A DNA stretch of 64,000 bases, from the NCBI GenBank assembly GCA_045613315.1, contig JAZLAV010000007.1, positions 1,785 to 65,784 of the forward strand. The letters are read 5' to 3'. Positions 3,616-60,040 of this stretch are shown in pieces (position 1 is the first letter of the stretch; every line of letters begins with the position of its first letter). Source of the DNA: Candidatus Enterousia sp. GTDB taxonomy: Bacteria > Pseudomonadota > Alphaproteobacteria > Rs-D84. The notes under the pieces are model-generated. The model was given only the letters and a program-made list of their open reading frames with translations. It ran no database searches and was not told the DNA's origin. Both the position numbers and the translations under genes were made by a program.

Positions 3616-3718
3616 ACTTTTTCCTTTCTTTGTTATTGTTATACGGGTTAATTCTAGCACTATCGGGCGACAGATTACAATTGAATTTTGTCCGTTGCCA
3701 TTTTATAATATTGTCAAT

Positions 3719-4618: not shown

Positions 4619-6826
4619 ATGTTTAATCCCGGTGATGTTGTAAAGGTTTTATTGCCAAATGTCGTAAATACTGGATACGACTATCGTCTTAATGCGCCGG
4701 CGGATATTGGTTCGTTTGTTGAATGTCGTGTTATGAATCGACCGTATATTGGTGTTGTGTGGGGTATTGGCGATTCCGGGTTGCCGGCCGATAAAATCAA
4801 AAGTGTTGTGCGCGTGTTGGATGCAAAATTGCCCGTGTGTGATTTACAATGGATAAAACGTATGTCTGATTGGACACTGATGACGCCGGGTGCGGTATTG
4901 AAACTTATTATAAATATCCCAGATGCTTTTTCGCCACCACGGATGGAACAATTGTATTCGTGGACAACAGATGAAAAAATCAAAATGACTGCCCCGCGCC
5001 AGGCGGTTGCTGATGCGTTTTCATCAAACGATAACGACCCAATGTCGGTAAATGATATTGTGAACATTGCACATGTGTCAAATGCGGTTGTGCGAACGAT
5101 GATAAAAAACGATATTTTGACCCCCGTGGATGTGCGTGCGGTGGAAAATAAAAATCGGTTTTTATATCGGTATCGTGATATGGGAACGGTTGTGTTAAAT
5201 TCGGAACAATCCACCGCCGCAAATAAAATTGGCGATGCAATTGATACCGGTGGTTTTTCGGTGTTTTTGTTGGATGGGATTACCGGTTCTGGTAAAACCC
5301 AGGTGTATTTTGATGCGGCAATTCGTGCATATAATGCGGGAAAATCGGTGTTGTTGATGATGCCGGAAATTGCGTTGACTGCACAATTTATGTCGCGGTT
5401 TGAATCACGGTTCGGGGCCGCGCCCGTTGTGTGGCACAGCAATTTAACCGCGGCGCGTCGTCGTGAAATATGGCGCGGGGTGTTAAGCGGTGAAATACGT
5501 GTTGTCGTTGGTACGCGCAGTGCACTGTTTTTGCCGTGGCAAAATTTGGGTCTGATTGTTGTTGATGAAGAACATGATACATCATATAAACAGGAAGATA
5601 TGGGAAATTATCACGCGCGCGATATGGCAATTTTGCGTGCGGCGATTGCAGGTTTTCCGGTTGTGTTGGCCAGTGCCACCCCATCGGCCGAAACATTGGA
5701 AAATGTGGCAAATGGAAAATATACGGGGCTTAAATTAACATCGCGTTTTGGTGGTGCGACATTACCAAAAATCGAAACAATTGATTTGCGGAACAATCGG
5801 CCGGAACCATACAAAACATCCATCACAGATGACGCGCCAGAAATTGCGGGTGCGTTATCCGCGCCATTGTGCGATGCGATTGCCGACACACTGGATAATC
5901 ATCAACAAATTATGTTGTTCATAAATCGGCGCGGTTTTGCACCGATTGTGCAATGTAAAAAGTGCGGATGGACGGCGACCTGTCCGGATTGCAGTGTGGG
6001 TATGACATACCATAAAAGAATTGGAAAATTGTTGTGCCATATGTGTGGTCGTACCGAACCGTTACCGATTAAATGCGCAAACTGTGGCGGTGATGTGTCA
6101 ATGCGTGGAGTTGGAATTGAAAAAATTCAAGAAGAAATCATGGCGCGTTTCCCCACCGCGCGCACCGCAATCGTGTCCAGTGATACAATCGCATCGCGTC
6201 AGAGCCTGGAACGCATTGTTAATAAAATGGAATCGGGAGAAATCGATATTGTGATTGGGACACAAATTTTGGCCAAGGGACACCATTTCCCGAATTTGAC
6301 ACTGGTGGGGGTGGTGGATGCAGATATGGGGTTGTTTGGAGCCGATTTTCGTGCGGCCGAGCATACTTTCCAACAATTGTTCCAGGTTGCCGGTCGCGCG
6401 GGGCGTGGCGCATTTCCGGGACGCGTGCTATTACAAACATATCAACCCGAACATCCGGTGTTAAATGCAATCTGTGGTGCCAATCGTGATGAATTTATGG
6501 CGACCGATATGGCTGCGCGTCGCATGGCCAAAATGCCACCGTATGGCCAGTTGATTGCGCTGGTTATCGAAGGTGCGCGCGAAAGTGTGTTGCAAAAATA
6601 CTGTGCCGATTTGGCGGTCGTTGCCCCGAATATAAACGGTGGACGAATAATGGGGCCCGTGCCGGCCCAGATTTACCAGATTCGCAATTGGTATCGTATG
6701 CGTTTTTTGGTGTCGGGTGATGTGCGTGCAAAATTACAACCGATTGTTGCTGCGTGGATTGCGCGTGTAAAACAACCCACGAACATTCGTGTAAAAATTG
6801 ATGTGAATCCAGTTAATTTTATGTGA
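4619..6826 (+). CDS. priA: primosomal protein N' (replication restart helicase)
   Basis: GITGSGKTQVY Walker A, DEEHD Walker B, Cys-rich zinc region CKKCGWTATCPDC...CHMCG, and GTQILAKGHHFP. Confidence 0.93.
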   Translation: MFNPGDVVKVLLPNVVNTGYDYRLNAPADIGSFVECRVMNRPYIGVVWGIGDSGLPADKIKSVVRVLDAKLPVCDLQWIKRMSDWTLMTPGAVLKLIINIPDAFSPPRMEQLYSWTTDEKIKMTAPRQAVADAFSSNDNDPMSVNDIVNIAHVSNAVVRTMIKNDILTPVDVRAVENKNRFLYRYRDMGTVVLNSEQSTAANKIGDAIDTGGFSVFLLDGITGSGKTQVYFDAAIRAYNAGKSVLLMMPEIALTAQFMSRFESRFGAAPVVWHSNLTAARRREIWRGVLSGEIRVVVGTRSALFLPWQNLGLIVVDEEHDTSYKQEDMGNYHARDMAILRAAIAGFPVVLASATPSAETLENVANGKYTGLKLTSRFGGATLPKIETIDLRNNRPEPYKTSITDDAPEIAGALSAPLCDAIADTLDNHQQIMLFINRRGFAPIVQCKKCGWTATCPDCSVGMTYHKRIGKLLCHMCGRTEPLPIKCANCGGDVSMRGVGIEKIQEEIMARFPTARTAIVSSDTIASRQSLERIVNKMESGEIDIVIGTQILAKGHHFPNLTLVGVVDADMGLFGADFRAAEHTFQQLFQVAGRAGRGAFPGRVLLQTYQPEHPVLNAICGANRDEFMATDMAARRMAKMPPYGQLIALVIEGARESVLQKYCADLAVVAPNINGGRIMGPVPAQIYQIRNWYRMRFLVSGDVRAKLQPIVAAWIARVKQPTNIRVKIDVNPVNFM

Positions 6827-9190: not shown

Positions 9191-9219
9191 AAAAAACCGC
9201 CCAAACGGGCGGTTTTTTA
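9191..9219. terminator. bidirectional intrinsic terminator
   Basis: AAAAAACCGCCC-AAAC-GGGCGGTTTTTT between convergent genes. Confidence 0.75.
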
Positions 9220-10050
9220 ATCAACCGCGACGATGAATATTTTTGCCCGGTTTGCTTCGCGTATTACATTTTCGCGGTCAACAACGAAACATGTTTTTGT
9301 GTTGACCACAATTCCGCGAATGTGCGCCGCCGCAACGGCGTGCACGGTATCAACGCCAATGGCCGGAATGTCGATGCGTAAATCTTGGCCCGGCTTGGTC
9401 ATTTTGGCAAAGACCCCACTTGGGTGGCGTTTGTTTTTGCGCATTTCAACAACCCGATCCAGCATTCGCGCGGTGCCTTCGGCGGCTTCGACTGCGATGA
9501 CCTGTTTGTCGACAACGACCGATGCACCGATGTCCATTTCACCGATTGTATGTGATACTTCCATGGCGCGACGAATATCCGCCATATCCGATTTTGTGGG
9601 TTTGGTTTTTGTCTGGATGCCGGCGTTTTCAAATGTTAATTCCGGTGCTAAATCCTGGGCAGCCAGGACACTGAATCCACGTTTTTCCAATACCTTGTTT
9701 AAAGTGACCGCCATTGAATCGTACCCCCGTTGGTTTTTCATAATGCTTAACAATGCGCCCAGCGACCACAAATCGGGGCGAATGTCATAAAGGTTTGGGT
9801 GCCCAATCGCACCAACAAATGTTAAATTTTTTATACCGCGACGCCGAAATTCGCGTACCGCACGACCCGCGCCACCCAATCGTACAACAATGTCGGGATT
9901 TAATGCCGGATCAACAAAGTTTTTAAGGCCGACAACATACACGTCCCAACCCGCACGACGCAACGCGTCACGCGTAAAGAACGGTAATTGTAATGCGCCG
10001 GCAACCAGTGCAATTTTTTTGTCGCCTGTTTGATTTTTGATTTTTGTCAT
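9217..10050 (-). CDS. lpxI: UDP-2,3-diacylglucosamine pyrophosphatase LpxI (DUF1009 family)
   Basis: N-terminal IALVAGALQLPF. Overall LpxI-like pattern including DIGASVVV and DIPAIGVDTV. Confidence 0.7.
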   Translation of the reverse strand: MTKIKNQTGDKKIALVAGALQLPFFTRDALRRAGWDVYVVGLKNFVDPALNPDIVVRLGGAGRAVREFRRRGIKNLTFVGAIGHPNLYDIRPDLWSLGALLSIMKNQRGYDSMAVTLNKVLEKRGFSVLAAQDLAPELTFENAGIQTKTKPTKSDMADIRRAMEVSHTIGEMDIGASVVVDKQVIAVEAAEGTARMLDRVVEMRKNKRHPSGVFAKMTKPGQDLRIDIPAIGVDTVHAVAAAHIRGIVVNTKTCFVVDRENVIREANRAKIFIVAVD

Positions 10051-47726: not shown

Positions 47727-48140
47727 TTTATATCCTTTTTTTGCAAAAAAAATACGCAAGCCAAATTCAGTTTGGACTTACGCTAATGCGGCTACACAAC
47801 CATAGGATATTATACAGATTAAAAAAAATAATTCAATTTTTTTGTTGGCGTATAAAAAACGAGCAACCCCCACAAACAAAAACTAGCTAGAAAATTTTGG
47901 ATATTTTGGTAAAGAAATAAAATTGTCATTGTGAAGTTATACCATAATCGTATAACAAATGTATAACTGCGAATATGTAATACGTGTTTAACATTTTGTT
48001 TATTTGTTGGGGGTATTATAGGGTAGTGCGGTGGAAAAGCGTATATAAAACATTGCCGTAGTTGTGGCGGTTTTCTGCGGAAAGTTTCAGATTTGTAATG
48101 ATGTGGGGAGGTGCCACTCTGGCCGTTAACGGGCCGGTCC

Positions 48141-48340
48141 AAAAAATCGTAAAAATTTTATACACGCCTTCGCAATGCCACAGAATCTGCGGGCTTTGGC
48201 AGGTGTAGTTGTGTATTCGCTGTGTAGCAGAATTTCATTGTGTAGCTTTTGTGTAGAAAAAATTGCGCTATCGTGTAGCCACATGTGCCAAAATATACAA
48301 AAACAAGCCATCTAAAAATCTACTATGCGGAATTTTTGTT
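48141..48340 (+). repeat. TGTGTAGC-box module I
   Basis: Six direct boxes start at 48202, 48210, 48221, 48239, 48250 and 48272 (GGTGTAGT, TGTGTATT, TGTGTAGC, TGTGTAGC, TGTGTAGA, CGTGTAGC), preceded by CCACAGAATCTGCGGG. It is about 85-90 percent similar by eye to modules II and III. Confidence 0.8.
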
Positions 48341-48341
48341 T

Positions 48342-48767
48342 TTACAAATGTACGATTTCAACATCTGGAATTTGGCTTGCGATGTATTCAGCCGCTAATC
48401 GTCTGTGACACATATCTGCTGTCTTTTCTGTGCAAAGCAAACATATCCTATCAAGTTTAGATATGTCACAATTCTGTAAAGGATTGCGTTTTTGCAATAA
48501 TTCCCGATATGATCTTTCGTATTCAGACCAAGTAATTTTTTTATCTTTATATTCAGCCAAAATATCCGATGTTGGTGCAAATTCTGGATGATATTCATAA
48601 CGATTGCCCAGCACCGCCGCCAGATTATCACCATTATAATACGGGACATAAGTACTTGTCCGCCAAAGCCGAATATCCCATACGCAACTTATACGCGCTG
48701 CGTCCAATACTTCCAGGAAAACTTCTGGCTTTTTACCACTAAAACCAATCGTAAATATCTTTGTCAT
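48342..48767 (-). CDS. DUF488-family protein (copy 1)
   Basis: MTKIFTIGFSGK..., YEYHPEFAPT..., ICLLCTEKTADMCHRRLAAEYI: the DUF488 pattern including the conserved C..E....CHR. Confidence 0.75.
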   Translation of the reverse strand: MTKIFTIGFSGKKPEVFLEVLDAARISCVWDIRLWRTSTYVPYYNGDNLAAVLGNRYEYHPEFAPTSDILAEYKDKKITWSEYERSYRELLQKRNPLQNCDISKLDRICLLCTEKTADMCHRRLAAEYIASQIPDVEIVHL

Positions 48768-48771
48768 AAAA

Positions 48772-49107
48772 TCAGTATTTAATTTTATCCAGTATCAAAT
48801 AAAAATCAGGAATATTTTTGGGTTTCATACCATTTAATAAATCAACGGAAGCAACAGATCCGAATGGCGCATAAAAATTGTCATTAAATTCATAATATTC
48901 ACGAATTGCCCCATTGATTTTATTTTCTAATTCGGGCATCTGCATATGAATCATCATAGTCCAAACTTTTTCCTGAATTTCATCATATTTATAATTACTA
49001 AATCTGTAATTATCCCAAAAATAAGACAAAATTTGTTTTGCTTGTTTTTCATTTAAATCTTTTATTGATTTTGGAAAATTATAGCGAGGATGCGTAGCCC
49101 GATACAT
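48772..49107 (-). pseudogene. fragment related to the middle of a GH108-type muramidase
   Basis: ATHPRYNFPKSIKDLNEKQAKQILSYFWDNYRF parallels ADHPEFHFPDNVKDLTGEQAQQIYGEDYYDERH of 49301..49789. It lacks the catalytic N-terminus and the PG-binding C-terminus. Confidence 0.45.
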
Positions 49108-49300
49108 ATCAAGTTTTTCTTGATTTACACTATAGGCATTTATACGTCCAGTATAATGGTTGCTTTGCGTATTTTCATATTCAAGTATTTTGTTAAAAAA
49201 TCACTGCGCCTATCGGCAATAACAACCATCGGGAGCAGCAATAATAATACCAATACTAACTTTTTCATACACTTATTATTGCAGGATATACATCAAAAAA

Positions 49301-49789
49301 TCAATATCTATTTGTACGACTTGTCCAATCATCTCCATATTTATCCCATCCAGATAATCCACGCAAATATTCAATTCTGTTTTCTTTTAAATTGTCCATA
49401 AAATCGTCAATTTTATCGTCGGGTATATTGTTCAAGGCATTGATTGTATTATCACCAATTTTACCGTCAACTTTTAAGTTTGCACCCATTGAATCGTTTA
49501 ATGTTTCTTGAACAATTTTTCCTACATTGTTAAAGTTGCTCATAACTCCCATATCAAATACAGCATTCGCAATCCGTTCGTTTTCTATTTCGCCAATATG
49601 GCGTTCGTCATAATAATCTTCACCATAGATTTGCTGTGCTTGTTCGCCAGTTAAATCTTTTACATTATCCGGAAAATGAAACTCTGGATGGTCCGCATTA
49701 TATTTATCCAATGTTGGTTGTGTTATGCCAGAATTTGTTGGTTGGTCTATTATATTTGGGGTGTCAGCATAGCCGCCTTCTTCCGCCAT
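49301..49789 (-). CDS. GH108-type lysozyme with a PG_binding_3 domain (possibly degenerate)
   Basis: EEGGYADTP...NSGITQ (GH108 N-terminal motif, GG to NS variant) and LKVDGKIGDNTINAL (PG_binding_3). The reading frame stays open upstream to 49978 through a MuF-like CEEC...HHPNCRC motif. Confidence 0.55.
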   Translation of the reverse strand: MAEEGGYADTPNIIDQPTNSGITQPTLDKYNADHPEFHFPDNVKDLTGEQAQQIYGEDYYDERHIGEIENERIANAVFDMGVMSNFNNVGKIVQETLNDSMGANLKVDGKIGDNTINALNNIPDDKIDDFMDNLKENRIEYLRGLSGWDKYGDDWTSRTNRY

Positions 49790-49978
49790 AGTTTTATGAA
49801 TAATGTCTTGTTTGCGATTATCTATAACAGGCTTGTCATTATCATCTAATTCAATTTCTTCTATCCAACACCGACAATTTGGGTGGTGTGGGTGTTCTGG
49901 TATATCTTCTCCATTCTCATAAATTGTTTCAGAGTATTCTAGGCATTCTTCACACGTTCTTTCGTCTATTTCTGCGTG

Positions 49979-50206
49979 CTAAATCCAGGCTTTTCTTATT
50001 GCTACGTTGCGTCCAGTTGCATCAATCGTGCTATTGCCATATTTATTTTCAAAATAATTATCAGTATGCAACGATTTTCTAAAGAAGCGTCTTTTACCGT
50101 TAACGTATGGTAATTCAATCATATAATAGAAGATATTTTTACGCAAGATTATTCGTGGTTTTGGTCCAAATGTACCACAGGGCGTATCACACTTTTCAAA
50201 CAACAT
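49979..50206 (-). pseudogene. N-terminal fragment of a tyrosine integrase (arm-binding region)
   Basis: RKNIFYYMIELPYVNGKRRFFRKSLHTDNYFE is typical of integrase N-termini. It ends at a TAG that is in frame with the MuF/GH108 frame downstream. Confidence 0.5.
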
Positions 50207-50533
50207 ACTTTTTAGTCCGTTCGATGTTTAACCAGTGATACAAAAGTGTTGAAAATCCAATGTTTTTGAATTTTTGGGTTTTGGAAATTGCTGTTTCCCA
50301 GCAAAGCCCAAGCCATTTATTCAAAAAATACCATAGAATAAAGAAAACCCAACGATTTCGCTGGGTCTACAATATCATAAAATTTCTTGGCTCACAGGTT
50401 TAAATAATCTTCGAACGACATACAGACAAGATGTCCTAATGATGAAAAATATATTTAACCAAGAAAATCCAATAAAAATTGATACAAGTACTGAAAATCT
50501 AACAAATATTGACTAAAATATGCATCCACCCAA

Positions 50534-50759
50534 CCGACATACGGATTAACAGCAAGCCCGCAGGTTGCCCTGATTTTCTTGGGTTGCAGCGTGTAAGACG
50601 CATGAATCAGCCACTTTTTCGCATATAGCTGTGTAGCCATTGTGTAGCTGTTTTTTTATGTGTAGCTCCTGTGTAGCAAAAAAATTGCACTATCGTGTAG
50701 CCACATGTGCCAAAAACATACAAAAGAGAGAATGCACAAACCAACTTTTACGGAATATT
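50534..50759 (+). repeat. TGTGTAGC-box module II
   Basis: It begins CGACATACGGATTAACAG. Boxes start at 50630, 50641, 50659, 50670 and 50694 with 11/18/11/24 spacing. The tail CACATGTGCCAAAAACATACAAAAGAGAGAATGCACAAA is shared with module III. Confidence 0.8.
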
Positions 50760-51182
50760 TTATAAATGCGTAATTTCAATGTCTGGTAATATTTCTGCAA
50801 TATATTCTGCCGCTAATCGACGATGACACTGTATAGCGGTCTTTTCTGTGCACAGCAAACATATTCTATCAAGTTTAGATATATCGCAATTTTGTAACGG
50901 ATTGCGTTTTTGCAACAATTCACGATACATTTTTTCATATTCAGCCCAGGTGATCTTTTTATCTTTGTATCCTGCCAAGATATCTGATGTTGGCGCAAAC
51001 TCCGGGTGATATTCATAACGATTGCCCAGAACATACGCCAAATTATCACCGTTATAATATGGAACATAAGTACTGGTTCGCCATTGCCGAATATCCCACA
51101 CGCAACTTATGCGTGCCGCGTTCAGCACATCCAGAAATGCTTCTGGGCTTTTACCACTGAAACCAATCGTGAATATCTTTGT
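50760..51182 (-). CDS. DUF488-family protein (copy 2)
   Basis: MTKIFTIGFSGKSPEAFLDVL...ICLLCTEKTAIQCHRRLAAEYI. It is about 80-85 percent identical to copy 1 by eye. Confidence 0.75.
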   Translation of the reverse strand, partial: TKIFTIGFSGKSPEAFLDVLNAARISCVWDIRQWRTSTYVPYYNGDNLAYVLGNRYEYHPEFAPTSDILAGYKDKKITWAEYEKMYRELLQKRNPLQNCDISKLDRICLLCTEKTAIQCHRRLAAEYIAEILPDIEITHL

Positions 51183-51186
51183 CATA

Positions 51187-51837
51187 TCAATACAAAAATA
51201 GCCCATTAAGCATTAAATAGCAATGATTTTCCTGAATCAAAAATTTACGCGCCAAACCAATTCTGCAATGTGCATATTGTGATTCAGCAACCATGTTATT
51301 CAACACAACAACATCTTTAGTTTTATCAAAAATGTCCCGTAAATATTTGCAACTGACTTTCATATCATATTTTTGTTTAGAAAAGTCGGTTATGCTGGCA
51401 CGCAATTTGCCATCTTCTGTAAAAAATTCTATATCTCGTGCAGAAACTACTATTGCCCCAAGTGACGGACATTTTGTATTTTGCAACACATAAGATTTTT
51501 CTTTTACATGATGATTAAATATGGATTGAATATCTTTTGAAACTGTATCCTTTAAACAATCGGCTAATTCTTTGCCTGGTTCAAAGAATTTTATAATTTC
51601 TATGGAATTATAATTTATATTCACATCTTCGGTTCTGTGCGGGTAATCACGTGGTTCATCAAAAGGTTCATTTTCAACCATTATTTGACAATAAGTTTTT
51701 GGAATTTGATTTTCGTCCCAGTATCCACTATCAATCATTAGCCGCTTCATGCGTTTTTCATATGTGTCGAAACCGGCAATACAAAACTTTTCTTTCATAC
51801 ATGTTATATCTGAAATAATAATATTTGATTTTTTCAT
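51187..51837 (-). CDS. hypothetical protein (216 aa), operon partner of DUF488
   Basis: Its stop lies 4 nt before the DUF488 start. Motifs are ISDITCMKEKFCIAGFD and DYPHRTEDVNI. No family recognised. Confidence 0.6.
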   Translation of the reverse strand: MKKSNIIISDITCMKEKFCIAGFDTYEKRMKRLMIDSGYWDENQIPKTYCQIMVENEPFDEPRDYPHRTEDVNINYNSIEIIKFFEPGKELADCLKDTVSKDIQSIFNHHVKEKSYVLQNTKCPSLGAIVVSARDIEFFTEDGKLRASITDFSKQKYDMKVSCKYLRDIFDKTKDVVVLNNMVAESQYAHCRIGLARKFLIQENHCYLMLNGLFLY

Positions 51838-52047
51838 TTTATATCCTTTGTTAAACGAAAAAAAGCCCGCATAAAGCGAGCCATAAAAAACGGCACAAAA
51901 TGTGCCTTTGAAGTTGAGAGCATTATATCACGAAACAACAAAAAAATCAATATGTTTATATGTGTAACGAATATGTCGTATGTTAACAAAATACCTTGCT
52001 TAAATCAGTATAAATGGCTATGCTAGTGATGATTTAATAATGGTGAT

Positions 52048-52332
52048 ATGATGATAAAATCATTTAATTGTCGCGAAACGGAAAAGATCTTTCGGGGTGA
52101 ACGGTCTAAGAAATTCCCAACCGATATTCAGCGACGGGCATTTCAAAAATTGGCTATGCTGGATGCATCTGAAAATGTGGACGATTTGCGTATTCCTCCA
52201 TCCAATATGTTAGAAACCCTGTCTGGTGACCGTAAAGGGCAATGGTCTATTCGTATCAATCATAAATATCGGATTTGTTTTACATGGGCTGACCACGAAG
52301 CAAATAATGTTGAAATAGTAGAATATCATTGA
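52048..52332 (+). CDS. higB: HigB-type toxin (plasmid maintenance system killer, RelE/ParE superfamily)
   Basis: MIKSFNCRETEKIF...LETLSGDRKGQWSIRINHKYRICFTW...VEIVEYH matches the HigB pattern. Confidence 0.85.
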   Translation: MMIKSFNCRETEKIFRGERSKKFPTDIQRRAFQKLAMLDASENVDDLRIPPSNMLETLSGDRKGQWSIRINHKYRICFTWADHEANNVEIVEYH

Positions 52333-52399
52333 AAAAGCGCTTGACTTTTATGTGTTATATATTATATAATACATAACAAGATAAGCAAGAGGTATCAAA

Positions 52400-52729
52400 A
52401 TGTCTAATTATATCGATATTGACCATGTTGGAACAATTTTGCGTGAAGAGTTTATGGAACCGTTGGGGTTGTCCATGAATGCTTTGGCACGTGCGATTGA
52501 TGTCCCGGCAAACTATATTCATGGTATCGTGCATGGAACACGTGGTATTTCTGCTGCAATAGATTTGCGACTTACTCGTTACTTTGGTTTATCCCAAGGA
52601 TACTTTCTGCGTATTCAAACGCATTATGATATGGTGTTGGCCTCTCGTAATATAAGCGATAAAGAACTGGCAAAAATTATCCCACTTGACCGACCGGCAA
52701 ATAGTGATTTGAATGTTGCTGTGATGTAG
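52400..52729 (+). CDS. higA: HigA-type antitoxin (XRE HTH)
   Basis: HVGTILREEFMEPLGLSMNALARAIDVPANYIHGIVHGTRGISAAIDLRLTRYFG matches the HigA/VapI pattern. Confidence 0.85.
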   Translation: MSNYIDIDHVGTILREEFMEPLGLSMNALARAIDVPANYIHGIVHGTRGISAAIDLRLTRYFGLSQGYFLRIQTHYDMVLASRNISDKELAKIIPLDRPANSDLNVAVM

Positions 52730-52925
52730 CGTTGGTTCGTTTTTTGAATGACACTCCCTATGAGGCGTGTTTTTTTATTGTATATGTTGTGTAATGTGCT
52801 TTGTGTAGCTAATATGTAGATTTTTGTTTTTTTGGCGGTGTTCTGCTATAAATATAGAAAATTTGTAGCAGACACACGGACTGCAGTGCCTGTTTCCTGC
52901 AGGTTTTAAGAGTTTTTTTATTGTG

Positions 52926-52947
52926 ACATACGGACTAGTCCGTATGT
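52926..52947. repeat. perfect 22-bp palindrome ACATACGGACTAGTCCGTATGT
   Basis: Read directly from the sequence. The half-site GACATACGGA recurs at the start of modules II (50537) and III (53062, GACATATGGA). Confidence 0.9.
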
Positions 52948-53061
52948 TTAGGGATGTTTTTTGTAAAAATGGCCATTTTTATGCTTTTATAAACAATCAA
53001 TATTTTATCAAAATTTCGCAGAAATCTGCTGTTTTTGCACGTGTAATTTATCTGGCAAAGT

Positions 53062-53290
53062 GACATATGGATTAACAGTGGCCCCCAGAAAATCGCTAAA
53101 TTTTTATACGCGTCTTCGCAACGCCACAGAATCTGCGGGTTTTAGCGTGTGTAGCTGTGTATCCACTGTGTAGCAGAATTTCATTGTGTAGCTTCTGTGT
53201 AGCAAAAAAATTGCACTATCGTGTAGCCACATGTGCCAAAAACATACAAAAGAGAGAATGCACAAAGCAACTTTTACGGAATATTTTTGA
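53062..53290 (+). repeat. TGTGTAGC-box module III
   Basis: It begins GACATATGGATTAACAG, followed by CCACAGAATCTGCGGG. Boxes start at 53148, 53156, 53167, 53185, 53196 and 53220. Confidence 0.8.
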
Positions 53291-53297
53291 TGGTTAT

Positions 53298-53356
53298 TAC
53301 ACAAAAGTCGTCCGGAAAATGTGCTATAAATACACAAAAGTCGTCCGGAAAATGTG
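53298..53356 (+). repeat. two 26-bp direct repeats TACACAAAAGTCGTCCGGAAAATGTG (33-bp period), putative operator or activator sites
   Basis: Exact copies at 53298-53323 and 53331-53356, immediately upstream of a consensus promoter. Confidence 0.85.
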
Positions 53357-53363
53357 TTTTTGG

Positions 53364-53392
53364 TTGATTTTTAGTAAAATTTGATGTATAAT
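53364..53392 (+). promoter_or_regulatory. sigma70-type promoter of the AAA ATPase gene
   Basis: TTGATT (53364-53369), 17-nt spacer, TATAAT (53387-53392). Confidence 0.6.
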
Positions 53393-53414
53393 GCAGTCGG
53401 ATGAAAAGGGGAGA

Positions 53415-54731
53415 ATGATGAAAAGATATGCACTAAAACAATTAAAAGATTGGAAAAATAGCAAGATAAGAAAACCTTTGCTCGTTCAAGGGGCGAGACA
53501 GGTTGGAAAAACTTGGTTATTAAAAGAATTTGGCAGAGAGTGCTACGAAAATACAGCTTATGTTAATTTTTATGATACTCCAGAAGCACATAATGTATTT
53601 GAAGGATCTTATAATGTTGCAAATATAATTTCTGCTCTAGGATCAATCACTAATGAGCAAATTGTTCCAGGTAACACTTTAATAATACTCGATGAAATTC
53701 AAGAATGCGAACGTGCTTTAAACGCTTTAAAATTTTTCAAAGAAAATGCACCGCAATATCATATAGCTGTGGCTGGGAGCCTTTTGGGTGTTGCGCTAAA
53801 CCATAATAAAATGTCTTTTCCTGTCGGACAAGTGGATTTTATGACGCTACATCCATTAAGTTTTTGTGAGTTTTTAGAAGCGGTTGGTAAAGAGGTGTTA
53901 GCAAAAAATATACAAGAAAATAATATTGATGTGTTGCGTATGCTTCATAATGACAGTGTTCAATTACTAAAACAGTATATGGTTATAGGTGGTATGCCGG
54001 AAGCTGTCAAAACCTTTATAGAAACAAGAGATTACGAGAGTGCACAAAAGATTCATAAAGATATTTTGGTCAGCTATCAAAATGATTTCGCTAAATATAC
54101 AACAGGGAATAATGCGGCAAAAATAATGGCTGTTTGGAACTCTGTTCCTGTACAATTAGCAAAACAAACTAGAAAAACGAAAAGATTCTTTTTCTCAGAC
54201 GTATTCCCTGGTGCCAGATCTCGTAACTTAGAAGATGCGATAGAATGGTTAAGATTATCGGGGCTTATACACTTAGTTCCAAAAGTATCAAAGCCTAGTT
54301 TACCTTTGGCTAGTTATATAGAATCTGGAGTGTTTAAGGTATATATGATAGATACGGGCTTGTTAAGCACCATGTCTGGTTTAGCAGCAAAGACAGTTAT
54401 CGATGGCGATCGGATATTTCAAGAGTTTAAAGGTTCTCTGACTGAACAATACGTATTGCAAGAGTTGGTACTGAATGATATACGGTTGAATTATTGGGCA
54501 TCTGAAAGTGAATCAGAGATAGATTTTATGTTCCAACATGAAGGCGACATTGTACCAGTTGAGGTTAAGGCGAATATAAGTTTGCAGGCAAAAAGTTTGC
54601 ATGTTTATCGGCAGAAGTATAAACCAAAATTCTCTGTGCGAACGTCTTTAGCGGGGTACGAAGTAAACAACGGCTTGTACAATATCCCATTATACATGAT
54701 AGGGAATGTACTAAGAATTATTTCGGAATAG
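53415..54731 (+). CDS. AAA-family ATPase (AAA_14 plus DUF4143) with a PD-(D/E)xK-like C-terminus
   Basis: Walker A GARQVGKTW, Walker B LIILDEIQ, C-terminal SESEIDFMFQHEGDIVPVEVKAN. RBS is GAAAAGGGGAGA. Confidence 0.75.
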   Translation: MMKRYALKQLKDWKNSKIRKPLLVQGARQVGKTWLLKEFGRECYENTAYVNFYDTPEAHNVFEGSYNVANIISALGSITNEQIVPGNTLIILDEIQECERALNALKFFKENAPQYHIAVAGSLLGVALNHNKMSFPVGQVDFMTLHPLSFCEFLEAVGKEVLAKNIQENNIDVLRMLHNDSVQLLKQYMVIGGMPEAVKTFIETRDYESAQKIHKDILVSYQNDFAKYTTGNNAAKIMAVWNSVPVQLAKQTRKTKRFFFSDVFPGARSRNLEDAIEWLRLSGLIHLVPKVSKPSLPLASYIESGVFKVYMIDTGLLSTMSGLAAKTVIDGDRIFQEFKGSLTEQYVLQELVLNDIRLNYWASESESEIDFMFQHEGDIVPVEVKANISLQAKSLHVYRQKYKPKFSVRTSLAGYEVNNGLYNIPLYMIGNVLRIISE

Positions 54732-55372
54732 TTTGCTATTGCGTTTATCTGCTTCTTCTGTAGAACAAAGGTTTGCTTCTGCATAATTACGGCTGTCACA
54801 AAAGTCGTCACAGTCCCATTCTAGCCCACGATCAAATTGGTCGCGTGGAGTTAACTTTGGTTTAAACGTTGAAAAAGATTGGTGCCTATCCGGTATTGCT
54901 CGATATCTTAGCATACACATCTGATCGCACAGTTTTTGTTGTCGCACATGGTTATATCTGGCATTTTTGTCTCCTTTGCTGTGTGTATTAGCAGGTTAAG
55001 TTGGTTTAATCAACATAAAACACACTTATTTTTGCGCTGGTATTTTTATAGAAAAAAGCACACATTTTTCTATAAAAATCGATTCGTTTGAAAGTGATAA
55101 TTTTTTTGTTGGGTGACGCCGATGAACAAATTTTATAAAATTTAACAAAACTGTATTTAGATGCGTTTGAATATGCTTTTATATGCTTTTGATACATTAT
55201 GATACAATTTCATTGCTAAAAAAAGTTATATTTTCTGCGGCTTTTACAAGACTTTTATTTTTTAGCATGCTATAATTTGCATGTAAGGATATCAAAAATT
55301 GCTGTGAGTTTAGATGATACTTTATAGCGTTTTTGAACCGAACAAAACCATCAAAACCCAAAGGAGAAAAAC

Positions 55373-55636
55373 ATGGAACATGAGTTCTTGAATTATGGGG
55401 GGATGGAGAGAGAAGAAACAGATTACAGATTCATAAATATAAAGGAAGACGTTTTGGAAGGTAGACTTCTTAAACCAAGAGAAGCGGCTGCATATCTCGG
55501 ATCATCTGTTTCGGCATTAAGCCAATATCGTGCGCTGGGGATTGGACCAGAATACTTCAAAGTCGGCAAAATGGTACGATATCGCAGGTCTGATATAGAC
55601 AAGTGGCTTGAGCAGAAGAAAAGCAGCAAAAAATAG
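55373..55636 (+). CDS. AlpA/excisionase-family HTH protein
   Basis: LLKPREAAAYLGSSVSALSQYRALGIGPEYFKVGKMVRYRRSDIDKWL. It lies directly upstream of the integrase. An extended -10 TGCTATAAT sits at about 55267-55275. Confidence 0.65.
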   Translation: MEHEFLNYGGMEREETDYRFINIKEDVLEGRLLKPREAAAYLGSSVSALSQYRALGIGPEYFKVGKMVRYRRSDIDKWLEQKKSSKK

Positions 55637-55702
55637 TTGTTTCTACTGGATATTCCGTATTTATCGTGCATTGTTGTGTAGCTGTAACAAAGGAGTACAC
55701 AT

Positions 55703-56911
55703 ATGGCAGAACAATGGAAATGTTATACCAAGGCGTTTCGCGATACATGGATACGTCTGTTAAATTCGGATATCAATTTGCAGGTCAGTGATGGGACAAT
55801 ACCGGGGCTTTTCCTGCGATATTCGGCGGCAACACGCGCCATTAGGTTTTTTCTGGGCTGTAAAATCGATAACAAGAAATGTAATTTATATATTGGGCGA
55901 TATAACGATTATTCAATCAAAGATATTCGCGATATGGCGTGGAATATGCGACACCAGCTTGCCCAGGGACATGATCCACGTCGTGAGAAAATAGAACAAC
56001 AAATGAAAGAAAAAGAGGCTCTTGGCGAAAAATTCCAAGACCTTTTCCCGCAATATATGGATAAATATTCCAAGATTTATAAGAAACCAAGAACACAAGA
56101 TTCCAACTGGGGACAATATCGACTTTATATCGGCCCGCTATTTGGCAAGATGTACATGCGTCAGATAGAAGAAAAGCATGTAATGGACGCTTATACCAAA
56201 TGGGTAAAAAGGACGTCGTTTTCAACAGCCAACAAAGCATTATCACTATTATCTAACTTTTGGGACTGGTGCGAAATGTACAAATACGTAGATCGCAATA
56301 CAAACCCTTGCAAATATGTCCGCAAGGGCGCAAATAAAGTTTATAAACCGCAAATATTGGATCAAGAAGGATACAGGGCATTATCGCATGCGCTGGATGT
56401 TGGACCAGAAGTGTCTAAGATGCATCCGCGTTTGTTCAATGCATTGCGAGTGTTGATGCTAACTGGCTGTCGTGCATCTGAAATCACAGGACTAGAAGTG
56501 GACGAGCTTGTCCTTATGCATAAAGTGATACATTTGAAAGACAGTAAAACAGGAGCCCGAGATGTGAAACTGTCTGATGCGGTTATACCATATTTACAAA
56601 CTGCGTTGGATGAAGCTGTTGCACTAGGTAGCAAATATGTATTCCCAGGTGTTGGTAATATACGACGTCCGATAAATAATATCCGCAAACCGTTTGAATG
56701 GGCGCTTGAATATGCAAAGTTGCCACACATGCGGATACACGACCTGAGACACTCGTTCATCAGTATGGGGGCGAATATCGGCGAAAATATGGCCGCCATG
56801 AAGGAGGCAGCAGGCCACAGTCGCATAACCACTACCGAAGGCTATACTCATATCATGGACAGCAGTACTTACAAAGCCATCAATAACGTTGCTAATGCAA
56901 TATGTGGTTAA
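55703..56911 (+). CDS. int: tyrosine site-specific integrase (P4-like)
   Basis: C-terminal catalytic region TGCRASEI, HDLRHSFISMGAN and GHSRITTTEGYTH. A TGTGTAGC box (55675-55682) lies 20 bp upstream of the ATG. Confidence 0.9.
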   Translation: MAEQWKCYTKAFRDTWIRLLNSDINLQVSDGTIPGLFLRYSAATRAIRFFLGCKIDNKKCNLYIGRYNDYSIKDIRDMAWNMRHQLAQGHDPRREKIEQQMKEKEALGEKFQDLFPQYMDKYSKIYKKPRTQDSNWGQYRLYIGPLFGKMYMRQIEEKHVMDAYTKWVKRTSFSTANKALSLLSNFWDWCEMYKYVDRNTNPCKYVRKGANKVYKPQILDQEGYRALSHALDVGPEVSKMHPRLFNALRVLMLTGCRASEITGLEVDELVLMHKVIHLKDSKTGARDVKLSDAVIPYLQTALDEAVALGSKYVFPGVGNIRRPINNIRKPFEWALEYAKLPHMRIHDLRHSFISMGANIGENMAAMKEAAGHSRITTTEGYTHIMDSSTYKAINNVANAICG

Positions 56912-56970: not shown

Positions 56971-57104
56971 GGGTAACGGCGAGCGCAACACCTTGTCACA
57001 CACAGCAGTCCAAAATGTGTTCGCAGTTCGCACTTTGGGGTTGTAAACCGCAGAAATCTAAGAAATATGGGGTGCGAACACATGCGAACACCTAGTGCGA
57101 ACAC
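56971..57104 (+). repeat. iteron cassette A (unit GTTCGCAC)
   Basis: GGGTAACGGCGAGCGC (56971-56986); GTTCGCAGTTCGCAC (57019-57033); about 38-bp spacer containing CGCAGAAATCT; inverted GTGCGAAC at 57072, TGCGAAC at 57083, GTGCGAAC at 57095. Confidence 0.8.
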
Positions 57105-57118
57105 ATATCATCAAATTA

Positions 57119-57534: not shown

Positions 57535-57664
57535 GGGTAACGGCGAGCGAGGCACTTCGCTAGCGTCAGGAATAAAAAAATGGTTCGCAGGTTCGCACTT
57601 TGGGGATTTATTGCGTAAAAACAAAGCATTAAGTGCGAACCTAAGGTGCGAACCAGGTTCGCAC
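57535..57664 (+). repeat. iteron cassette B (unit GGTTCGCAC)
   Basis: GGGTAACGGCGAGCG (57535-57549); GGTTCGCAGGTTCGCAC (57582-57598); spacer; inverted GTGCGAACC at 57633 and 57646; direct GGTTCGCAC at 57656. Confidence 0.8.
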
Positions 57665-57945
57665 CCTAAATACAAAACAAATTCTCTGATTTCAATTCTG
57701 AAATCAATACTGAAATCAGATATGATATCGTGAGTAATAGAAGAAAGAAGAAAAGAAAATAAAATATAAAATAAATAAAAATAAAATTAAAAGAAGAGAA
57801 AGAAGTAATGTGTGTTCAAATTGTTGAAAAATTGTTGAAAACTCACGTACATCTGTTGGTATAAGTTATAATGCTTTGCAATGTGTTTATAGCAATCTTA
57901 ATCAATAATAATGTCAATAATCTATGGTAATGTATTGCTTTGCAA

Positions 57946-58074
57946 GGGTGATTACTAGCGCAACACCTTGTCACACACTGCAACAAAAAATAGGTGCGCA
58001 GGTGCGCACTTTGGATATTTATTCCGTAAAAACAAATAACTAAGTGCGTACCAAGGGTGCGTACCAAGTGCGCA
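57946..58074 (+). repeat. iteron cassette C (unit GGTGCGCAC / GTGCGTACC)
   Basis: GGGTGATTACTAGCGC plus AACACCTTGTCACACAC, shared with cassette A; GGTGCGCAGGTGCGCAC (57993-58009); spacer; GTGCGTACC at 58044 and 58057; GTGCGCA at 58068. Confidence 0.8.
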
Positions 58075-58113
58075 TCAAAACAAAAAAGGTACTGTGACGG
58101 AAGTTTTTATCAA

Positions 58114-58251
58114 GGGTAACGGCGAGCGCGGCACCTCGCTACACACAGAAATAAATTTTAAGCCGCAGGCCGCACTTTTTCTTTCTGTGTTGCAGAAATC
58201 TGGGATTTTAGTGCGGCTTTGTGCCGCGGCAGTGCCGCACTTATGCCGCAC
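58114..58251 (+). repeat. iteron cassette D (unit GCCGCAC)
   Basis: GGGTAACGGCGAGCGC (58114-58129); GCCGCAGGCCGCAC (58162-58175); spacer with TGCAGAAATCT; GTGCGGC at 58211, GTGCCGC at 58221, GTGCCGCAC at 58232, TGCCGCAC at 58244. Confidence 0.8.
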
Positions 58252-58602
58252 CAACACCTTAAATTAGCCTGAAATTAGACTTGATATTAGCGGTAAAGAT
58301 AAAGAAAAGTAGTATAGAAAAAGATAATGATAAAGATAAAAAAATTGATAATTGTAAAGAAAAAGAAAGTAGTATATACCGGTTCACAGTTGAAAATTTG
58401 TTGAAAAATTACGTGCATATGTTGGTATAAATTGTAATGTGTTAATCTGTTTTCAGATAAATCTATATCCAAAAATTTCTTATTTTTTTATCCAAATGTA
58501 TCGTGGTGTATCATAATGTGTCAACCCTAAAACGCGCAGAAAATAAGGACTTTACAAATCAAATTTTTTCATGCATGGTGGTGATGAAGCAAAGGATTTT
58601 TT

Positions 58603-59011: not shown

Positions 59012-60040
59012 TTGTTTTGGGCTAAGTTTTTAAGAAAGGAAAGGTTAGATCTCGTGGAATATGAAATTGATGTAAAAGAGAACATGATTTTGCAAAAGTG
59101 GCCTGATTTATTGGGAATCCTTTTGCGTGACCATACCACGGGAAAAAACATATTCTGGGCTACGGATCTTTATGAACAACAATATGGCCACCGTTACGCA
59201 TTTCGTTCTCAAATAATGCCAGAGTTAATCACTGGTGAAAATGGCAACATTATTAAGCCGCGTGTTGCAAAAACGAAGAAAGCACAACAAGACAGAGTTA
59301 AAGATAAGGCTGAAGTTTTTACACCGGCATGGATTTGCAATAAACAAAACAACCTGATTGATAACGATTGGTTCGGTTATGAAGGTGTTTTTAATAACGA
59401 AAAAGATGATAATACTTGGATGGCCACCAAGAAGCCTGTTGTATTCCCAGAAAACAAAACATGGGTTGATTATGTTCGCGAATTGCGTTTAGAAGTTGCT
59501 TGTGGTGAAGCACCGTATCTTGTTAGCCGTTACGATATCACCACAGGCAAAAAAATAAAATTACAAAATAGAATTGGATTATTGGATCGTAAAATACGCA
59601 TAGTAAACGAAAACGCGGCCAGCGATAGTGAGTGGCTTGCGATGGTAAAATGGGCATTCAAAAGCACATATGGATACGAATGGCAAGGAGATAATTTATT
59701 ACTTGCTCGCGAAAATCTGTTGTTTACATTTATCGATTATTTTGAAGACAGATTTGGCAAAGAACCAGATCTGGATTTGTTAAAAGAAATAGCAGAAATA
59801 ATCTCTTGGAACATCTGGCAGATGGATGGCATCCGTGGTGTGCTGCCATGTACATGTTGTAATTCAAAATATATAGATTTGTTCGGCGAAAAGACAATGG
59901 ATTGTTGTCTTGGATGCAAAACGGGTGACATTCATAGCCATAACGGAAAGTACTGCTATATCGGTGATTGGAACAAAATGACATCGAAAGGCCAACCAAC
60001 AAGAATTAAATATATTTCATTACTAAAGGGTAAAAAATGA
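59012..60040 (+). CDS. methyltransferase-fold-like protein with degenerate motifs and a C-terminal Cys/His cluster
   Basis: AEVFTPAWICNKQNN resembles MTase motif X. RLEVACGEAPYLVS sits where motif I (LEPACGSGAFL) would be. There is no NPPY. The C-terminus reads CTCCNSKY...CCLGCKTGDIHSHNGKYC. The track start is TTG; GTG 59054 after GGAAAGG is an alternative. Confidence 0.6.
   Translation: MFWAKFLRKERLDLVEYEIDVKENMILQKWPDLLGILLRDHTTGKNIFWATDLYEQQYGHRYAFRSQIMPELITGENGNIIKPRVAKTKKAQQDRVKDKAEVFTPAWICNKQNNLIDNDWFGYEGVFNNEKDDNTWMATKKPVVFPENKTWVDYVRELRLEVACGEAPYLVSRYDITTGKKIKLQNRIGLLDRKIRIVNENAASDSEWLAMVKWAFKSTYGYEWQGDNLLLARENLLFTFIDYFEDRFGKEPDLDLLKEIAEIISWNIWQMDGIRGVLPCTCCNSKYIDLFGEKTMDCCLGCKTGDIHSHNGKYCYIGDWNKMTSKGQPTRIKYISLLKGKK

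Follow-up and report, generated by a model that had tools for sequence, protein, structure and literature searches.

Phased direct-repeat modules in a Candidatus Enterousia genome are probably integrase-side arms of tRNA-Asn-derived attachment sites

Attachment (att) sites of the lambda/P4 type are the closest described counterparts of the locus presented here. In two of them, those of KplE1 (CPS-53) and phage P4, arm-type sites overlap the int promoter, which results in autorepression by the integrase, together with the excisionase (PMC2951348). Among the islands at tRNA genes (tDNAs) catalogued in Islander, the core starts in the anticodon loop in 2083 of 3919 cases; tandem islands at tDNAs are documented, arrays of three or more being rare (4/3919) in a count that considers only units with their own integrase (PMC4383910). 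Asn tDNAs are described as island hotspots in one account of Klebsiella and Yersinia (PMC4891358). Integrase-less, att-flanked cis-mobilizable elements (CIMEs) can be stacked with an integrase-bearing element by accretion (PMC5704250), and mycobacteriophages such as Fionnbharth integrate in a tRNA gene without rebuilding it, the phage carrying a compensating tRNA (PMC10865867). The subject of the present analysis is a stretch of 64,000 nucleotides (nt) from Candidatus Enterousia sp. (assembly GCA_045613315.1, contig JAZLAV010000007.1, positions 1,785 to 65,784 of the forward strand). This whole 64-kb stretch is called the window, and all coordinates of modules and other features are window positions. 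It carries three homologous modules of short, phased direct repeats in the neighborhood of a tyrosine integrase gene (int). These modules are probably the integrase-side arms of att sites derived from tRNA-Asn, marking the joints of three island units arranged head to tail.

The repeated box, TGTGTAGC, occurs in 14 exact copies in the window, whereas dinucleotide-preserving shuffles contained 0.92 copies on average and 5 at most. Ten of the 14 lie inside modules I to III, the remaining box positions of the modules being occupied by variants with one or two mismatches, and the consensus is YGTGTAGC. Measured from start to start, the box spacing of modules II and III is 8/11/18/11/24, and that of module I differs in its last interval (8/11/18/11/22). 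A first-pass annotation of the same DNA, made by a model from the letters alone, had already described three homologous modules of direct, phased boxes with such spacing, a conserved tail behind them, and an imperfect palindrome in modules I and III. All of this was borne out: the tail is present in each of the three modules, and the palindrome corresponds to a CCACAGAATCTGCGGG hairpin at 48178-48193 and 53124-53139, found in these two modules only. The proposal that the boxes occupy the same helical face holds for the pairs spaced by 11 nt, but not for the spacings of 18 and 22-24 nt, which are not multiples of 11. Single boxes outside the modules were likewise located where they had been annotated, at 47791 (minus strand), at 52802, and at 55675 shortly before int. 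The one at 47791 is without support in relatives and compatible with chance. The 14th exact match, at 58138 on the minus strand, belongs to another repeat family; as the bases at this place differ in the sister units of the window, the match is probably fortuitous. It does recur at the equivalent position in relatives L006 and L094-L097 (L numbers designate the loci compared), where the whole unit is conserved.

With one box plus the invariant tail as search pattern, 185,579 species-representative genomes were scanned, which yielded 16 loci. All 16 belong to metagenome-assembled genomes (MAGs) of gut or rumen Alphaproteobacteria, namely, Candidatus Enterousia and relatives. In every locus that reaches far enough, the module directly follows a 17-nt core, GACA[T/C]A[C/T]GGATTAACAG. 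The exact 17-mer occurs twice in the window, at 50536 and 53062, where it forms the left edges of modules II and III, and a degenerate counterpart is present at ~48113-48132. The true starts of the modules, at the core, thus lie further left than initially annotated. The copy at module I contains many mismatches and was missed by a search that allowed up to 3 of them.

The identity of this core became apparent from tRNA-Asn, as core II corresponds, in reverse complement, to its anticodon loop, the 3′ strand of its anticodon stem, and its variable loop. In L002 and L010, two of the relatives, the 17-mer extends leftwards into TGGCTCGGGCA.CTGGACTCGAACCAG, followed by a hairpin; read on the opposite strand, this region comprises the anticodon loop, T-arm, acceptor, and CCA, and then a terminator. 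By BLAST, annotated tRNA-Asn genes of E. coli match bases 1-34 of the fragment at 100% identity. ARAGORN detected no intact tRNA at the fragment loci of L002 and L010, and the fragment is therefore a displaced tRNA 3′ half. As the gene beside it in L010 encodes MetK, the flank is chromosomal. The core, the tRNA-Asn 3′ half, and the terminator, in one locus together with a housekeeping gene, have all the appearance of a classical island end. Displaced tRNA fragments at an island end were seen in L002, L010, L104, L108, and L110; the window itself contains the 17-nt core twice, plus the degenerate copy, without T-arm or acceptor. To its left, the 17-mer is joined to at least eight contexts, which include the tRNA 3′ half, a conserved arm referred to as type 1, and several others. 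To its right follow unrelated module types, A, B, or C, or, once, non-module DNA, and left and right partners occur in many combinations. The 17-mer, as far as its sequence contexts tell, behaves as a core of site-specific recombination.

The modules themselves are conserved among the relatives in a peculiar fashion. Module I matches the type-A modules of L007, L009, L010, L014, and L015 at 80-90% identity, and module II matches the type-B modules of L001-L006, L008, L011, L012, and L016 at 90-95%. Over the ~70 nt adjoining the core, types A, B, and C have hardly any sequence in common; this segment is constant in length within ~2 nt. The types also differ in the 10-nt and 3-nt spacers. Nevertheless, the identical box register is kept in 20 distinct arrays of the three types, and the information content of box columns is 1.63 bits versus 1.03 bits for spacer columns (Mann-Whitney p=2e-5). 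That the register is the same despite unrelated core-proximal sequence indicates that selection acts on the boxes and their spacing. Within the window, the modules are mosaics, the left part being common to I and III (87% identity) and the right part to II and III (90-92%).

The border between module and cargo was also visible in the comparison. A sharp shared boundary, ACGGAAT[A/G]TTTT, separates the module from many different cargo genes. A cargo gene of the DUF488 family is accompanied by a full module in units I and II of the window and in L001, by the module tail only, beginning exactly at GCCACATGTG, in L014 (~5590-5700), and by no module in L016 (~3620-3700). The module type (A or B) and the variants of tail or cargo assort independently, the switch occurring near an 8-bp palindrome, CACATGTG. 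This switching may be due to homologous exchange in the invariant 45 nt or to a second breakpoint.

The modules are linked to one family of integrases. The integrase of the window contains the Pfam domains Arm-DNA-bind_3 (E=5e-9), Phage_int_SAM_3, Phage_int_M, and Phage_integrase and is P4-type; 1122 homologues were found at E<=1e-20, and look-ups of the exact proteins Int and unit-II DUF488 returned no record. Upstream of int lies a gene for an AlpA-like protein matching PHROG 66, "excisionase and transcriptional regulator." In 6 of the 16 loci, as well as in every contig of sufficient length that encodes a 92%-identical integrase, a module is located upstream of orthologous alpA-int, at a distance of 1.5-4 kb, and modules are linked to int orthologues in L092-L102 as well. 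The space between module and alpA-int is filled by differing cargo genes. The box preceding int is kept by all close relatives and was found at the same place in L002, L003, L004, L006, L008, L013, and L092-L102.

More distant members of the family are found in similar surroundings. The integrases that are 57-59% identical (L104, L108) belong to prophages with terminase and portal genes, and their left junction has the order terminator, tRNA-Asn 3′ half, core, an arm of 350-600 nt, alpA, and int. The arm belonging to the 59%-identical prophage integrase comprises three to four CATACAAA repeats plus boxes of the TGTGTAG type. In L110 (52%-identical integrase; 9200-9760), a displaced tRNA-Asn 3′ fragment with the core is followed, after ~245 nt, by an intact tRNA-Asn and, after a further ~180 nt, by alpA and int; either a tiny island remnant lies between fragment and gene, or the island brings along the tRNA 5′ half or a whole tRNA-Asn. 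As like junctions are found with integrases this distant, the whole family targets the anticodon region of tRNA-Asn. Compared with these prophages, the subfamily to which the integrase of the window belongs has gained a cargo slot between arm and alpA.

A second, integrase-distal arm, on the other side of the core, precedes core III (Table 1). It is 87-95% conserved in L006, L012, L014, L016, and L103, and its box pair is found ~266 nt left of the core in L006, L012, L014, and L103. Boxes of like sequence are therefore present on both arms flanking the core, six on the proximal and one pair on the distal arm. The distal arm also contains the palindrome gacatacggactagtccgtatgt, which is built from the first 10 nt of the core (GACATACGGA) in two inverted copies, lies ~137 nt left of core III, and is kept in L012, L014, and, partly, L103. 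This palindrome might serve the integrase as an additional core-type site, or it may be what is left of another att site.

Among the mechanisms considered, arm-type integrase sites are best supported, given the presence of boxes on both arms, the arm-binding domain of the integrase, and a distance to the core that is fixed. Arm-type sites had been one of three options offered in the first-pass annotation, and the context (the tRNA-Asn core, the Arm-DNA-bind_3 integrase, and boxes on both sides of the core) speaks for it; that the integrase binds the boxes is what we infer from this context. The anatomy of the sites, the tRNA origin of the core, its linkage to the integrase family, the conserved box register, and the structure of the array are the observations from which the following scheme was drawn. 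The YGTGTAGC boxes would be bound by the N-terminal Arm-DNA-bind_3 domain of the island integrase, and its catalytic domain would act at the core, ~85 nt from the arm boxes. The ~70-nt segment between core and boxes, constant in length and variable in sequence, would let the DNA bend, so that one integrase could bridge arm site and core, as in the intasomes of lambda, P4, and KplE1. At the lone box before int, the integrase, with or without AlpA, probably represses its own gene. The tandem array would have been built by accretion, that is, by successive site-specific integration into resident att sites; the sites may still be active. Unit II would then resemble a CIME, an att-flanked element that has lost its integrase.

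Several findings weigh against this interpretation. The statistics of box conservation were drawn from related sequences; furthermore, the search pattern included box 6 and seven bases of box 5, the latter box also being the anchor of the alignment. The distal arm has just two good boxes. As it also lacks T-arm and acceptor, that is, the 3′ part of the tRNA, integration into an intact tRNA-Asn gene would destroy the latter. Failure to rebuild the target tRNA gene is atypical, though known for some phages (PMC10865867); the units may instead use resident att sites, and not the tRNA gene, for integration. Neither an empty attB, nor an excised circle, nor a regenerated tRNA-Asn turned up. The window, which ends before the far end of unit III, is devoid of a tRNA-Asn gene, and in none of the relatives was a second core found in the 10 kb to the right of int. 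When metagenomes were scanned for the distal arm joined to core and TCCG, a single contig, L103, was recovered, without a tRNA 5′ half; in this sole candidate for a far junction, the core and TCCGT are followed by non-tRNA DNA. Scans of viral contigs for the core joined to type A and to type B/C returned nothing. At the array's left end in the window, the core is degenerate and no tRNA fragment is present, which makes unit I, at least, a fossil, and activity may have ceased in the entire array. Finally, the same boxes could be sites for the AlpA-like protein.

This last possibility deserves attention, although we consider it unlikely. The modules would again be att arms, but the boxes would be bound by the AlpA-like HTH_17 protein, which would polymerize on the phased repeats, bend the arm, and direct excision; the arm sites of the integrase itself would then be, for example, the CATACAAAAG or the TTGCACTAT segment. 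The position of alpA directly upstream of int and the PHROG match of its product to an excisionase and transcriptional regulator agree with such a role, as does the situation of the lone box between alpA and int. Directionality factors, such as Xis, TorI, and RdfS, bind close direct repeats in one arm, and TorI also binds the promoter region of intS (PMC2951348). A second type of site does exist, given the CATACAAA repeats in the arm of the 59%-identical prophage and the near invariance of CATACAAAAG in the module tail. However, sites of directionality factors are normally confined to one arm, whereas the boxes are present on both. Furthermore, six sites spread over 80 nt, with gaps of 18 and 24 nt, look more like dispersed arm sites than like a contiguous filament of the Xis type. 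The arm-binding domain of the integrase also needs sites of its own, and no other repeat was found on both arms.

A more far-reaching interpretation, which is doubtful and in our estimation less probable still, concerns what the sites accomplish. The tRNA-Asn core could serve as a cassette platform, at which, in these gut Alphaproteobacteria with small genomes, int-less units of 2-3 kb, each made up of a proximal arm, a few genes for defense or toxin-antitoxin functions, and a distal arm, are captured, stacked, shuffled, and excised in trans by one arm-binding integrase. Signs of such a platform would be the sharp boundary between module and cargo, the free assortment of the two, and the distal arm that does not rebuild the tRNA. 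If true, this would amount to integron-like gene capture built from lambda-type att sites instead of attC hairpins.

Phased direct 8-mers followed by an A-tract also look like iterons, and the first-pass annotation had named replication iterons as an option. The modules would then be origin or copy-control iterons bound by an initiator of the island, with the extra arrays serving in handcuffing or incompatibility, comparable to P1 incA or P4 ori/crr. Box phasing alone cannot separate arm sites from iterons; the context of the tRNA core does. Every module is fixed beside the tRNA-derived core, units without int carry modules too, and no AT-rich unwinding region flanks the boxes. Furthermore, no gene for a replication initiator (Rep), primase, or helicase is present in the island of the window or within 10 kb in the relatives. 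Arrays of the same 8-mer found in IMG/VR at the 3′ end of primase/helicase genes (L019, AAA_25; L031, D5_N+DUF5906; L081, PriCT_2+AAA_25) might seem to favor an origin, but the sharing of the 8-mer with phages is due to chance: two composition-matched scrambled 8-mers gave 8 and 1 independent array families, compared with 4 for TGTGTAGC. Iterons are thus very improbable.

In IMG/VR, four independent phage families (among L017-L091) have 5-7 exact TGTGTAGC copies per array. In two of the four, the array lies beside primase/helicase genes (D5_N+DUF5906 and PriCT_2+AAA_25, respectively); a looser array, on a fifth contig (L019), adjoins a gene for an AAA_25 helicase. Such phage arrays are likely origin iterons. 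A universal factor binding TGTGTAGC was rejected as an explanation, as the scrambled-8-mer controls give as many independent array families.

Least probable of all is that the modules are operator arrays for neighboring cargo, bound, for example, by HigA or by the 94-amino acid (aa) protein resembling a winged helix-turn-helix (wHTH) regulator, their adjacency to the core being incidental: one box is indeed placed just upstream of int, where it could affect transcription, but the modules are without a promoter-like site (none stood out, with 33 promoter-like sites in the region versus 35.5 expected), the gene next to modules I and II has its 3′ end toward the module, a single module type is found with many different cargo genes, and higBA and the 94-aa gene are missing from many module loci. 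Of the operator option in the first-pass annotation, only a narrow part is retained, namely, that the single box before int may serve autoregulation, as for KplE1 IntS (PMC2951348).

Four further candidates were dismissed. Integron attC sites do not apply, because the integrase is not of the IntI type (it has an arm-binding domain and is P4-like) and the sites are direct repeats beside a tRNA core, not palindromes. Transposon ends, such as Tn7- or Mu-like sites beginning with TGT, were discarded because there is neither a transposase nor a matching inverted end, and the modules abut the tRNA core. Origin of the module from a plasmid or phage was rejected, as blastn of module III against PLSDB and INPHARED gave no match. 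A structured RNA was abandoned as well, as the sole Rfam match at E<=1 over 40-64 kb was a tRNA-Lys, with none in the modules.

Together with the core and the two arms, the modules divide the array into three units (Table 1). The first-pass annotation had regarded three copies inside one island as unusual; this premise was wrong, as each copy belongs to its own att-bounded unit, the three units lying in tandem and two of them being without an integrase. Unit II has att sites on both sides, and unit I only in part, with a degenerate core at its left and, at its right, an arm in which no boxes were found. The int-less units measure 2.4-2.5 kb each. The open reading frames (ORFs) and Pfam domains between 48342 and 52729 comprise DUF488, a GH108 fragment, HigBA, and unknowns, without integrase or transfer genes. 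As there are two module types, and as the DUF488 genes adjoining modules I and II are just 80% identical, the array is not a local duplication. Rather, it appears from these sequences to have arisen by stacking of different elements and subsequent recombination between them. G+C content is ~0.35 from ~47.8 kb to the end of the window versus ~0.45 elsewhere.

Unit I looks like a decayed fossil. Its region from 48772 to 50206 contains a run of short ORFs on the minus strand (111 aa, a 162-aa lysozyme-like fragment with GH108/PG_binding_3, and 75 aa), which looks like one or more pseudogenized genes. In unit III, the slot between arm and alpA is variable, as the same slot in relatives holds other genes, among them those for PIN-domain proteins, DUF8370, and a long ORF judged HipA-like by eye. 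Downstream, an ORF of >1322 aa with a ResIII helicase and an Eco57I methylase domain (type IIG restriction-modification) comes after a type II methyltransferase-like gene (59012-60040) and runs past the end of the window (64000). The candidate defense genes PDC-M45C and PDC-S01, HigBA, and the restriction-modification genes together make the array a defense island.

Table 1. Positions of att-site components, island units, and genes in the window.
Feature	Position	Strand	Details
Unit I	~48113-50535		Degenerate core, type-A arm, DUF488, broken ORFs; no int
Degenerate att core, left edge of unit I	48113..48132	+	gccactctggccgttaacgg; aligned with the core column of the other modules
Module I (type A), integrase-proximal att arm	48133..48340	+	
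Boxes of module I	48202, 48210, 48221, 48239, 48250, 48272		GGTGTAGT at 48202, TGTGTATT at 48210, TGTGTAGA at 48250, CGTGTAGC at 48272
Cargo of unit I	48342..50535	-	DUF488 (48342-48767), 111-aa ORF, GH108-like fragment (49301-49789), other broken ORFs
Unit II	50536-53061		Core, type-B arm, cargo, complete type-1 distal arm ending at the next core; no int
Att core II	50536..50552	+	GACATACGGATTAACAG
Module II (type B), integrase-proximal att arm	50553..50759	+	
Boxes of module II	50622, 50630, 50641, 50659, 50670, 50694		CATATAGC at 50622, CGTGTAGC at 50694
DUF488 / PDC-M45C candidate defense gene, unit II	50760-51206	-	PADLOC
216-aa ORF, unit II	51187-51837	-	
HigB, unit II	52048-52332	+	
HigA, unit II	52400-52729	+	
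Integrase-distal att arm, type 1, of unit II	52730..53061	+	
Box pair of distal arm, 11-nt spacing	52802-52820		TGTGTAGCtaaTATGTAGA; ~260 nt from core
Further element of distal arm	52862		TTTGTAGC
Palindrome of distal arm	52925-52947		gacatacggactagtccgtatgt
Hairpin and T-run of distal arm	~53017-53040		
Unit III	53062 to beyond 64000		Type-A arm, PDC-S01 ATPase, alpA-int, second repeat family, methyltransferase-like gene, type IIG restriction-modification gene
Att core III	53062..53078	+	GACATATGGATTAACAG
Module III, integrase-proximal att arm of the int-bearing unit	53079..53290	+	Type-A left part, module-II-like tail
Boxes of module III	53148, 53156, 53167, 53185, 53196, 53220		TGTGTATC at 53156, CGTGTAGC at 53220
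Variable cargo slot of unit III between arm and alpA	53391..54947		AAA_14/DUF4143 ATPase (PDC-S01 candidate defense gene), 78-aa ORF
alpA-like HTH_17 gene, 87 aa, candidate excisionase (recombination directionality factor)	55373..55636	+	Pfam HTH_17
Single TGTGTAGC box before int	55675..55682	+	Ends 20 nt before the int ATG (55703)
Tyrosine integrase, N-terminal arm-DNA-binding domain	55703..56911	+	Pfam

Other repeats were encountered in and near the units. Module III is separated from the promoter of the PDC-S01 ATPase gene by a stretch that holds two perfect direct repeats of 26 nt, TACACAAAAGTCGTCCGGAAAATGTG, at 53298-53323 and 53331-53356; upstream of its orthologous ATPase, L013 carries the repeat twice in full and begins a third copy, and a related word, cacaaaagtcgtc, recurs at ~54795. 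These repeats are probably the operator of the ATPase cargo gene. To the left of the array, an inverted repeat, cccccacaaacaaaa / ttgtttatttgttggggg, is present at 47869-47885 and 47997-48015, with ~110 nt in between, in the low-GC stretch that separates module I from a major facilitator superfamily (MFS) transporter gene; no homologue of this stretch was found in any fetched locus.

A second repeat family is situated 3′ of int and comprises four units of ~145 nt (56971-57115, 57535-57676, 57946-58087, and 58114-58260). Each starts with GGGTAACGGCGAGCG, followed by two direct heptamers (GTTCGCA, GTGCGCA, or GCCGCA), a spacer of ~35 nt, and two to four more copies, mostly inverted; the heptamer varies between units, and AT-rich stretches follow units 2 and 4. 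In relatives, one such unit lies ~55 nt past the int stop codon and another across a variable cargo slot, which holds SACS/NOV_C, a reverse transcriptase, or just a gene for 94-95 aa. The units fold as hairpins (z -1.5 to -3.9) and are without an Rfam match. They could represent an origin, a second recombination site, or a hotspot of cargo exchange.

The structure described here is of an ordinary, known kind, that is, att arms of a P4-type integrase family targeting tRNA-Asn, as a new case in a poorly studied lineage, and it leaves the current understanding of site-specific recombination unchanged. What it provides is the definition of an att site, its tRNA-Asn target, and a probable arm-site code (YGTGTAGC, 8/11/18/11/24) for an integrase family that moves prophages and defense islands in uncultured gut and rumen Alphaproteobacteria (Candidatus Enterousia). 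Precise island boundaries can now be drawn in MAGs of this group. Several contigs encoding 92%-identical integrases end within ~40-800 nt of the core, and the present result may explain these assembly breaks. The array is also a compact example of accretion, in which int-less units are stacked with candidate defense genes (PDC-M45C, PDC-S01), HigBA, and restriction-modification genes. Lastly, three natural arm variants with identical box geometry offer a handle on the role of arm-site spacing in intasome assembly.

Of the known systems, the lambda/P4-type att sites, especially those of KplE1 IntS and phage P4 Int, resemble the locus most closely. Shared with them are an integrase with N-terminal arm-binding and catalytic domains, a tRNA-derived core flanked on either side by short direct arm repeats, a gene for a small HTH excisionase beside int, and an arm-type site just upstream of int, which in their case serves autorepression (PMC2951348). 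In contrast, the YGTGTAGC box and its 8/11/18/11/24 layout are specific to the island family, and the host is an uncultured gut alphaproteobacterium. The related prophages have their arm adjacent to alpA-int, whereas 1.5-4 kb of variable cargo intervene in the island family.

With the tRNA-gene islands of Islander, the array has in common the core in the anticodon loop and the stacking of several units at one site, and its relatives also the displaced tRNA 3′ fragment at an end; it differs in that the shared core is just 17 nt long, that the commonest distal arm would not rebuild the tRNA, and that two of the three units lack an integrase, so that Islander would not count them. Att-bounded units whose integrase genes were lost or never present, in tandem with an int-encoding element, are also known from streptococcal CIMEs, integrative conjugative elements (ICEs), and integrative mobilizable elements (IMEs) (PMC5704250), but no genes for conjugation or mobilization were seen here, and the units are very small (2.4-2.5 kb) and carry defense or toxin-antitoxin cargo. 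Phage Fionnbharth likewise combines an arm-binding tyrosine integrase with a short core in a tRNA gene, and the intact tRNA-Asn between fragment and alpA-int in L110 recalls its compensating tRNA, whereas no island-borne tRNA-Asn is present in the window. Integron cassette arrays, too, are made up of short, recombinase-less units that each end in a recombination site, and they lie beside one gene for a tyrosine recombinase. There, however, the recombinase is IntI and the sites are folded attC, whereas the units described here comprise several genes with their own promoters and are bounded by a tRNA core with direct-repeat arms.

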